Shown: positions 10,994 through 12,983, counted from the first letter of the stretch. The stretch: 32,229 nt of DNA from a virus (IMGVR_UViG_2529292920_000016); one strand, 5' to 3'. Notes: generated by a model not told the origin, from the letters alone. Translations and numbers: made by a program.

Positions 10994-12367
10994 ATGAAAA
11001 GACTATATTATACCCATCATGATAGTCGAACCTTAAAACTTGCTATAGAAGGTGATGTTTCTGATAATGCGAATATTTTTACAGTAATTGTAGGTAAAAA
11101 TGGCGTTGGAAAAAGCAGATTGTTATCTCAGATTGCTAAAGACTGTATTCAAGATATTCATTTCTTGAAAACTTTTAATCCATTATTTGACAGAGAAATA
11201 ACACCAAAGTTAATTGCCGTATCTACCAGCCCATTCGATAAATTCCCTCCAGGGCGTAGGTCATTAAATCACCAAAGGAAAGAAAATAATTATCGCTATG
11301 TGGGTATGCGTGGAGAAGGCCCCTTCGGCGTATCAAATGCCGTATCCCTTTTATCTTCAGCAGCGAGAGGTTGGCTAGAGAAACTTGCTTATTCAGAAAA
11401 TCCTGCAAATTTACTCGATGTTTTTCATTCTATTGATTTTGAGCCCCATATAGAGTTTGTATTTAAACCAACTTACAACGGACCGGACACTCCTGACTAT
11501 AACTTCATTGGTGTATATTCAGATGAGATATTAACGGAAGTTAAGGAGTTATATTTAAAATACAATATAAAAATTGACAGGAAGAATATTGAGAGTCTCT
11601 TAAAGTTAAACTCCGAATCACGTCATGATATTTACGAAGCACTGGTTGAAATTAATCGATTTGAACCTGAACGTAGGGCTGTAACCTTGTCAGTCGATTT
11701 TACCAATGGTGAAACATTGGTTGGCTCGACTTATGCGAATAATTATTTTTCTAGATCAATTCTTAAACTTATGAACGCTGGCTTCATGAGATTGATGGAT
11801 ATGCGACTCATAAAAAAAAGCTATGGTCCCATGTCACTTAAACGTGCGAGCTCGGGAGAACAATGTTTATTAGTGATGTTGCTTGGAATTGCAGGGCATA
11901 TAACTGATGGTTCTATAATACTAATTGATGAACCGGAAATAAGCTTGCATCCTCGATGGCAGGAAGAGTTTATCATTATGTTAACAAAAGCATTTTTAAC
12001 TTACTCAGGTTGTCAATTCATAATTGCAACTCATTCACCACAAATAATATCCAATTTGCCGAATAAAGGTTGTTATATAACATCTTTGTCGAAAAGTTAT
12101 CTTTATAAAGCAAAATACTTTAGCAACCGGTCTGCAGACTATCAACTTGCGGAACTATTTGATGCCCCTGGCATTATGAATGAATACATTGCCAGATTAG
12201 CTTTCAATTTACTTTCAAAAGTTAAGACTGCTAAGTTAGTAACAGATGATAATTGGCGTGAATTAAAACAACTCCAGCTTCTCCTTGAAAACGTTAATAG
12301 TAATGACCCTATTAATGAACTCGTAAATTCCGTATCTCAGGTGTGTGAAATTTATGCCAAAAATTAA
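10994..12367 (+). CDS. ABC-type (AAA15/AAA21-like) ATPase, Septu PtuA-like
   Basis: 457 aa. Walker A GKNGVGKS, ABC-signature-like ASSGEQ, Walker B ILIDEPE, H-loop ATHSP. AT-rich; 3' end overlaps the downstream HNH gene by 14 nt. Confidence 0.65.
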   Translation: MKRLYYTHHDSRTLKLAIEGDVSDNANIFTVIVGKNGVGKSRLLSQIAKDCIQDIHFLKTFNPLFDREITPKLIAVSTSPFDKFPPGRRSLNHQRKENNYRYVGMRGEGPFGVSNAVSLLSSAARGWLEKLAYSENPANLLDVFHSIDFEPHIEFVFKPTYNGPDTPDYNFIGVYSDEILTEVKELYLKYNIKIDRKNIESLLKLNSESRHDIYEALVEINRFEPERRAVTLSVDFTNGETLVGSTYANNYFSRSILKLMNAGFMRLMDMRLIKKSYGPMSLKRASSGEQCLLVMLLGIAGHITDGSIILIDEPEISLHPRWQEEFIIMLTKAFLTYSGCQFIIATHSPQIISNLPNKGCYITSLSKSYLYKAKYFSNRSADYQLAELFDAPGIMNEYIARLAFNLLSKVKTAKLVTDDNWRELKQLQLLLENVNSNDPINELVNSVSQVCEIYAKN

Positions 12368-12983
12368 AAATCCAATTAGATTCAGCGCAGAGTCATTAGA
12401 TATTATTGAGAAAAAATTGTCTTCTCCAGATTTTAAGCATACCAACTGGGGAGATGATGATTTGCAAGTTCTCCGTGCAGAAATTAGAAATCATTACAGA
12501 GAAGAACAAAAGCTAGAATGTGTATATTGTCATGAGCCTATTGGGGTAAGAGCTGCACAAGCTGCTCCTATAGAGCATATTGTGCCAAAATCTCAATATC
12601 TATGTTTTATTTTTGAACCTAAGAATCTATGTGTAGTATGTCCTGACTGCAATGAATTCAAAGGTAAAAATGAAGTGTTATTTGAACCCGTAATAAATGG
12701 GGGGCGGCGCAAAAACTATCCAACTGCATCTGCATCATTTCGCATCGTTCATCCACATATAGATGATTATGAGATGCATATTATAAAAGCAAATCGTGTT
12801 TATGTGGACAAAACACCTAAAGGGCACTATACCATTGGAATATGTAAACTAAATAGATTTTTTCATTATTTTGGGATGTGTGATGAATTTGTTAATGATG
12901 CAAAAATTGCTGAGGCAAATGAAAATTTTTTCAAAAAGGTAGTATTACTACTAATGAATTATTGGATGATGACATTCATTTGA
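12354..12983 (+). CDS. HNH endonuclease, Septu PtuB-like
   Basis: ATG at 12354 inside the last codons of the ATPase gene. HNH motifs CVYCHE ... EHIVPKS ... CVVCPDCNEFKG (two C-x2-C pairs with His/Asn). Confidence 0.6.
   Translation: MPKIKNPIRFSAESLDIIEKKLSSPDFKHTNWGDDDLQVLRAEIRNHYREEQKLECVYCHEPIGVRAAQAAPIEHIVPKSQYLCFIFEPKNLCVVCPDCNEFKGKNEVLFEPVINGGRRKNYPTASASFRIVHPHIDDYEMHIIKANRVYVDKTPKGHYTIGICKLNRFFHYFGMCDEFVNDAKIAEANENFFKKVVLLLMNYWMMTFI

Follow-up and report, generated by a model that had tools for sequence, protein, structure and literature searches.

Stand-alone (type I) Septu systems consist of an ABC ATPase, PtuA, and an HNH nuclease, PtuB, which are encoded by a co-oriented, overlapping gene pair with no retron. 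As far as the work of Li et al. 2024 is presented in PMC12640716 and PMC12819146, PtuA and PtuB of the E. coli Septu form a 6:2 complex, and DNA nicking by this complex is inhibited by ATP. PtuB's C-terminal domain is sandwiched by a pair of PtuA C-terminal extensions, and the solved stand-alone Septu PtuA, which has a leucine in its signature motif, is without ATPase activity (PMC12819146). Defence by the characterised E. coli Septu needs the Walker A/B and HNH residues (PMC13096335; bioRxiv 10.1101/2022.08.21.504612). Characterised relatives cleave tRNA-Tyr in the variable loop, for which Walker A/B and HNH residues are also needed (PMC13096335), and they act in an abortive-infection-like manner that phages escape by means of their own tRNA-Tyr (PMC13096335, PMC11555353). 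tRNA-Tyr is the species cut by the characterised E. coli Septu and by retron-Eco7; the substrate varies among PtuAB homologues (PMC12640716). A homologous ATPase-HNH pair forms the effector of type I-A retrons (Ec78/Eco7 and Ec83/Eco4), in which a reverse transcriptase (RT) plus a non-coding RNA (ncRNA) as well as multicopy single-stranded DNA (msDNA) are part of the system, and PARIS combines a related ABC ATPase, AriA, with the TOPRIM/DUF4435 nuclease AriB. Here we analyse a two-gene cassette, ptuA and ptuB, in IMGVR_UViG_2529292920_000016, a stretch of viral DNA of 32,229 nucleotides (nt) that we refer to as the window. Very probably, the cassette is an anti-phage system of the stand-alone (type I) Septu kind that a lambdoid prophage harbours as accessory cargo (positions of all features are listed in Table 1).

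The initial annotation of this region had proposed a Septu-like gene pair and had named profile searches and structure prediction as checks. Profiles were searched and the two proteins were modelled as monomers, and profile scores, fold ranking and gene order across genera all agree with the proposal. In PADLOC-DB, PtuA matched the PtuA profile PDLC00283 with an E value of 1.9e-165 and 549 bits, residues 2-455 aligning to profile positions 3-447 of 448. PtuB, in the allele present in the window, matched the PtuB profile PDLC00325 with an E value of 5.5e-82 and 272 bits (residues 4-195 versus profile positions 2-191 of 213), so that both proteins are full-length matches to the PADLOC Septu models. 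In Pfam, PtuA matched AAA_21 and AAA_15 above the cutoffs, and PtuB matched HNH with 23.9 bits, just above the cutoff of 21.4 bits. All features that define type I Septu and can be read from sequence were found at this locus, and those that define membership in retron type I-A or PARIS were not. We found no family-defining difference from type I Septu; the only peculiarity of the window copy is a frameshifted PtuB tail, which is discussed below. The system type is already catalogued, and this subfamily has a dedicated PADLOC profile.

The four ATPase motifs that had been listed for PtuA were all located by script: Walker A (GKNGVGKS, residues 34-41, with K40), the signature (SSGEQ, residues 286-290), Walker B (LIDEPE, residues 310-315, with D312/E313) and the H-loop (ATHSP, residues 345-349, with H347). 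Each of them was invariant in an alignment of 54 homologues with identity down to 42%. Homologues of PtuA have 444-466 amino acids (aa) and are widespread in Gammaproteobacteria (Klebsiella, Dickeya, Cronobacter, Pseudomonas, Vibrio, Stenotrophomonas). By a rough estimate, an open frame of 457 codons at about 35% GC is far beyond chance, and the profile matches decide this question in any case. One claim of the initial annotation had to be given up, namely that the ATPase is shorter than many canonical PtuA proteins: the profile has 448 positions, the subfamily spans the lengths given above, and the solved E. coli PtuA has 465 aa compared to 457 aa here. The length is normal for the subfamily and therefore gives no ground for suspecting a distinct system.

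For ptuB, the longest open reading frame (ORF) runs from a GTG at 12345 to 12983 on the plus strand (212 aa). We nevertheless place the start at the ATG at 12354, because homologues begin with MPxI and the RefSeq annotation of E. coli E2348/69 uses the same start. The HNH motifs reported earlier for this protein were recovered not only by the Pfam match but also by conservation: C56, C59, H75, N91, C96, C99 and N100 were invariant in 53 homologues. Together these residues make up an HNH (beta-beta-alpha-metal) motif in which four cysteines (C56/C59/C96/C99) provide the zinc site and H75 is the catalytic residue; in the E. coli Septu the catalytic histidine of the HNH nuclease has the identical number, H75. 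Our data show that PtuA is an ABC-type ATPase with the full conserved set of catalytic motifs, and that PtuB is an HNH nuclease that is stabilised by zinc and whose C-terminal domain is helical.

Monomer models of both proteins were obtained with AlphaFold2 (mean predicted local distance difference test (pLDDT) 83 for PtuA and 82 for PtuB) and compared to the PDB with Foldseek. The 43 best matches of the PtuA model were all PtuA chains with a probability of 1.00, including those of retron Ec78/Ec83/Eco7 and of the E. coli Septu (8eea/8ee4), and AriA of PARIS came next. The five best matches of the PtuB model were all PtuB chains (retron Ec83, retron I-A/Ec78, E. coli Septu 8eea), aligned over nearly the whole length with probabilities of 0.95-0.99 and followed by Cas9 HNH domains. 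With respect to the E. coli Septu (8ee4/8ee7/8eea/8sux; ATCC 25922, EcB88), the fold ranking was the same for both subunits. The PtuA model ends in three C-terminal helices (residues 392-456), and the helical C-terminal domain of PtuB comprises residues of about 155-195. In the models, PtuA helices 392-456 and PtuB helices 155-195 are compatible with the published interface.

Several other families combine an ABC ATPase with a nuclease, among them PARIS (AriA/AriB), AbiL, the PADLOC candidate PDC-M01 and OLD/Gabija-type systems. That the cassette belongs to one of these is very improbable. PtuA did give secondary PADLOC matches, the best non-Septu scores being PDC-M01A with 96 bits, AriA with 78, retron ATPase_I-A with 71 and AbiLi with 63, and AriA was its best PDB match when only the sequence was searched. 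However, the non-Septu PADLOC matches cover only the signature/Walker B segment (about residues 270-365), and the AriA match is likewise local over this region, whereas the match to the PtuA profile runs from one end of the protein to the other. In the fold search AriA ranked below all PtuA chains. The partner also differs, since it belongs to the HNH proteins, matches the PtuB profile over its full length and is not a TOPRIM/DUF4435 nuclease.

The genes ptuA and ptuB overlap by 14 nt, as had been noted before and as the sequence confirms, which suggests that translation of the two genes may be coupled. The same arrangement, an ATPase gene followed by a gene for a partner of about 194-216 aa with an overlap of 14-17 nt, was found in P. 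aeruginosa, K. variicola and V. fluvialis, and in the P. aeruginosa and K. variicola pairs the partner has an HNH Pfam match. The genes flanking the pair are unrelated in these three species; in K. variicola it adjoins phage tail and lysis genes of a prophage. Since the pair is kept with differing flanks, it constitutes a mobile two-gene module with no other conserved partner. A diverged PtuAB (39-40% aa identity, 414 and 217 aa) is present in E. coli STEC409 (NZ_CP041422.1, 5272-7162), where it lies between the integrase and psu genes of a P4-like satellite at tRNA-Thr, near delta and sid-like genes. This shows that the same Septu subfamily is carried by phage satellites. Our data thus demonstrate that ptuA and ptuB are conserved as an overlapping unit of two genes, which mobile elements carry from one genome to another.

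In E. coli Z1323PEC0010 (NZ_CP148282.1, 1970190-1972179) the annotation splits ptuA into an "ATP-binding protein" and an "AAA family ATPase", and a ptuA fragment of 292 aa is on record as WP_000827087.1. The cassette has evidently decayed in some lineages.

The pair could also be the effector half of a type I-A retron ("type II Septu") with the RT and ncRNA located elsewhere or lost. Retron PtuA and PtuB chains are among the top fold matches, and both proteins gave weak NCBIfam matches to the equivalogs built for retron Ec78. These scores are far under the cutoffs, with 65.8 bits versus 500 for NF041760 (PtuA) and 30.5 versus 150 for NF041761 (PtuB). No RT is annotated within +/-19 kb of the cassette, and no retron RNA is among the Rfam gathering hits, which comprise DicF, sok, STnc100 and two tRNAs only. 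An RT neighbour was also found in none of the homologous loci inspected. Retron PtuAs have 542-552 aa and carry an N-terminal extension and a helical flap, while the window PtuA lacks both and with them about 90 residues. An origin from a retron is therefore extremely improbable. With neither an RT nor a retron RNA near ptuAB, the cassette is a Septu of the stand-alone kind, type I.

At 99.7-100% identity, the window corresponds to a lambdoid prophage that is integrated beside potC in E. coli O127:H6 E2348/69 and in 18 further complete genomes. Among 5,426 complete E. coli genomes, 19 contain the cassette. The prophage has the gene order int-xis-exo...dicB/DicF...cI-like/cro/YdaT and replication genes, and continues with a truncated DUF1627 gene, a DUF5677 gene, a tyrosine-recombinase pseudogene, ptuA, ptuB, hok/sok, rem, DUF968 and rusA. 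From about 8.5 to 13.1 kb the GC content is 33-40%, compared to about 45-55% in the flanks; the low-GC insert has a length of about 4.4 kb. Matches to the common prophage backbone end at about 8604 and restart at about 13062-13132. Other lambdoid prophages with the same DUF1627 and hok/sok flanks contain other cargo, e.g., QueH/DUF977 or a Kiwa KwaB-like gene. From the gap in the backbone and the differing cargo elsewhere we conclude that the cassette was acquired as cargo and occupies a variable slot, flanked by the replication and nin/hok regions. The differing cargo suggests that lambdoid prophages hold, from the replication module to the nin region, a variable slot for accessory or defence genes.

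The location in a prophage, together with the assignment of both proteins to PHROGs families that are all of "unknown function", would also suit a phage housekeeping or selfish module, for instance an HNH endonuclease that acts in homing or is associated with the terminase and has an ATPase as its accessory. Such a function is scarcely probable at all: the cargo slot is variable and lies far from the terminase genes, most related prophages lack the cassette, the same pair is also located at chromosomal sites that are not phage, and both proteins match defence profiles over their full length.

A single nucleotide distinguishes the window copy of ptuB from the common allele. A run of six A residues (A6) is shortened to five (A5) in direct comparison with E2348/69 and with all complete genomes listed, whose matches span one base more than the window query. 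The window PtuB ends with NFFKKVVLLLMNYWMMTFI and a stop (209 aa), the common allele with NFFKKGSITTNELLDDDIHLI and a stop (211 aa). The deletion alters PtuB past residue 195 from GSITTNELLDDDIHLI to VVLLLMNYWMMTFI, each followed by a stop. As a consequence, the frame of the last 14 PtuB codons is shifted, and 16 C-terminal residues are swapped for a hydrophobic tail of 14 residues, VVLLLMNYWMMTFI. PtuB of the A6 allele matched PDLC00325 with an E value of 1.1e-83 and a score above that of the window allele, and this match reaches profile position 205 of 213. The A6 match is both longer and higher-scoring, which makes A6 the ancestral allele. Records of the exact 209-aa protein come from 11 contigs, those of the 211-aa form from at least 1000.

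These differences raise the question whether the cassette, although a Septu by descent, is impaired or inactive in the window copy. The sequence difference itself, the better profile match and the far larger number of contigs for A6 are in favour of this view, as is the contact that PtuB's C-terminal domain makes with PtuA in solved complexes (PMC12819146). However, the conserved core of PtuB stops near residue 195, and the tail is variable among homologues and missing from many of them (about 195-201 aa). In the AlphaFold2 model the tail is of low confidence, with a pLDDT of 56 dropping to 40, while the long helix 177-195 is intact. The A5 allele was found both with and without an insertion of the insertion sequence (IS) IS481, and may therefore be a homopolymer error of draft assemblies or harmless slippage. 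We consider an impaired copy unlikely; as a minor allele that affects a non-conserved tail, the A5 change is probably tolerated. In a contig of GCA_000249135.2, A5 and IS481 occur together.

A number of observations weigh against an assignment to type I Septu. Sequence likeness to solved and tested PtuA is confined to the signature/Walker B region: the match between the solved PtuA 8ee4 and the window PtuA has an E value of 3e-7 and extends over about 54 residues only. For PtuB, a single-sequence search of the PDB gave no match, and the PtuB family profile reaches retron PtuB at an E value of 4.6e-5. The TM-scores of the Foldseek matches are low for both subunits (0.2-0.46), which we attribute to the comparison of monomer models with flexible multi-domain subunits taken out of complexes. 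With such remote sequence similarity and low TM-scores, oligomer stoichiometry, inhibition by ATP and substrate are extrapolations for the window system. The signature glutamine Q290 (SSGEQ) is invariant in the window subfamily, in contrast to the leucine in the solved stand-alone Septu PtuA, so that regulation could differ. To this have to be added the NCBIfam PtuA/PtuB equivalog scores, which remain far under their cutoffs for models of the retron Ec78 type, and the frameshift in the PtuB tail, which could impair this particular copy. In our literature search, no experiment that tests this subfamily or locus came up, and nothing relevant on the subfamily, the RefSeq protein accession or Septu in E2348/69.

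Identity with the tested Septu EcB88 was considered and rejected: the residues mutated in PtuA are K43 and D316 there versus K40 and D312 here, while H75 and N91 of PtuB coincide. The published numbering fits an 8ee4-type PtuA, so that EcB88 is probably a distant relative.

With these reservations, and with the cassette taken as a type I Septu, its mode of action can be proposed by analogy to the tested systems. The nuclease would be kept inactive within a PtuAB complex, as in the 6:2, ATP-inhibited complex of the solved E. coli Septu. Phage infection would release or activate it, and the active nuclease may then damage nucleic acids, in the way that tested systems cleave tRNA-Tyr within its variable loop and/or nick DNA. 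Phage replication would be halted, much as in abortive infection. The ATPase motifs and the HNH motif should both be necessary, and for distant E. coli relatives the dependence of phage resistance on ATPase and HNH residues has been shown (PMC13096335). Since the substrate varies among homologues, we assign none to the window subfamily. tRNA-Tyr is not among the prophage's own tRNA genes, which are those with CAT and Arg(TCT) anticodons only. The likely benefit to the lysogen is protection against superinfecting phages.

The subfamily, which is gammaproteobacterial, shares less than 20% identity with every Septu that has been solved or tested, and it has kept the signature glutamine. A tentative and rather doubtful extension is that it represents a catalytically active ATPase variant with a trigger or target other than tRNA-Tyr cleavage or DNA nicking, that it serves as a superinfection-exclusion module of the prophage, and that the slippage-prone A-run yields variants of the PtuB tail.

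Table 1. Features of the cassette and of the surrounding prophage; positions refer to the window.
Feature	Position	Strand	Description
ptuA	10994..12367	+	ATG start, 457 aa; ABC-type (AAA_15/AAA_21) ATPase
ptuB	12354..12983	+	HNH nuclease, 209 aa in the window; 211 aa in the common allele
ptuA end/ptuB start overlap	12354..12367	+	14 nt, read from sequence
A5 homopolymer	12933..12937	+	A6 in all complete genomes inspected; 1-nt deletion versus E2348/69
Two sigma-70-like promoter candidates	10793..10871	+	TAGACA-17-TAGAAT and TTAACT-18-TAGAAT; 125-200 nt upstream of ptuA; consensus scan, weak
Low-GC insert	8605..13061		33-40% GC; ptuAB, DUF5677 gene and tyrosine-recombinase pseudogene; between truncated DUF1627 gene and hok/sok
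DUF5677 protein, 280 aa	9113-9955	+	Pfam DUF5677; full-length match to PHROG 4167 (unknown function)
Tyrosine-recombinase pseudogene	~10007-10623	+	Frameshifts and internal stop; between DUF5677 and ptuA
IS481-family element	13294-14388 (transposase ORF 13243-14331)	-	6-bp duplication; inserted in hok/sok
DicF antisense small RNA	4534-4585	-	Rfam 76.7 bits; adjoins dicB
DNA methyltransferase	18127-19056	+	PADLOC MTase_II, E=6e-136; without adjacent restriction enzyme
Prophage tRNAs	19106-19181, 19279-19355	+	CAT anticodon (ARAGORN Met; RefSeq Ile), Arg(TCT)
STnc100 small RNA	20037-20226	+	Rfam 123.6 bits; upstream of SASA/NanS-like esterase gene

Upstream of ptuA a consensus scan gave two weak promoter candidates, the number of promoter-like sites in the region not being above shuffled expectation; downstream of ptuB the same kind of scan gave no terminator. 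Neighbouring ORFs had no match to defence profiles save for an orphan-type methyltransferase and a helix-turn-helix repressor. The methyltransferase is probably an orphan prophage methylase. We also considered the DUF5677 gene as a third Septu component or conserved partner and rejected both ideas: its product has no PADLOC match, the recombinase pseudogene lies between it and ptuA, and it is absent at the Pseudomonas, Klebsiella, Vibrio and P4-like satellite loci. It could be independent uncharacterised cargo or a defence candidate in its own right.

The tyrosine-recombinase pseudogene has intact counterparts of about 90% identity, annotated as "site-specific integrase", in other E. coli genomes, and it may be a trace of the element that brought ptuAB in. 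The idea, taken from STEC409, that it (about 10061-10581) is the remnant of a P4-like integrase was not supported, as tblastn revealed no significant similarity. Downstream of the cassette, the IS481-family element lies between the sok/5' regulatory region (Rfam sok, 13133-13299) and the coding sequence of hokD (about 14403-14558), which it thereby separates, and its transposase ORF runs about 51 nt past the IS481 boundary into sok DNA. Two related prophages (L002 and L003) have no IS, and hokD follows directly after ptuB. In the strain analysed here, hokD has probably lost the link to its regulatory region. The copies of ISEc13 and IS200C that E2348/69 has between the esterase and lysis genes (L001, 31938-33907) are missing at about 22650-23150 of the window, which therefore comes from a related strain and not from the E2348/69 assembly. 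DicF and STnc100 are typical of lambdoid or Qin-like prophages.

Standard tools (PADLOC, DefenseFinder) would flag the ptuAB locus automatically. For the organism, our data mean that a rare Septu, located in a variable cargo slot of a prophage, is present in the reference-strain lineage of enteropathogenic E. coli (E2348/69-like). The frameshift in the PtuB tail provides a natural allele that may be of use as a probe of the PtuA-PtuB interface. Given the difference in the signature motif, it would be reasonable to include the subfamily in comparative mechanistic studies of how the substrate, tRNA-Tyr or DNA, is chosen.

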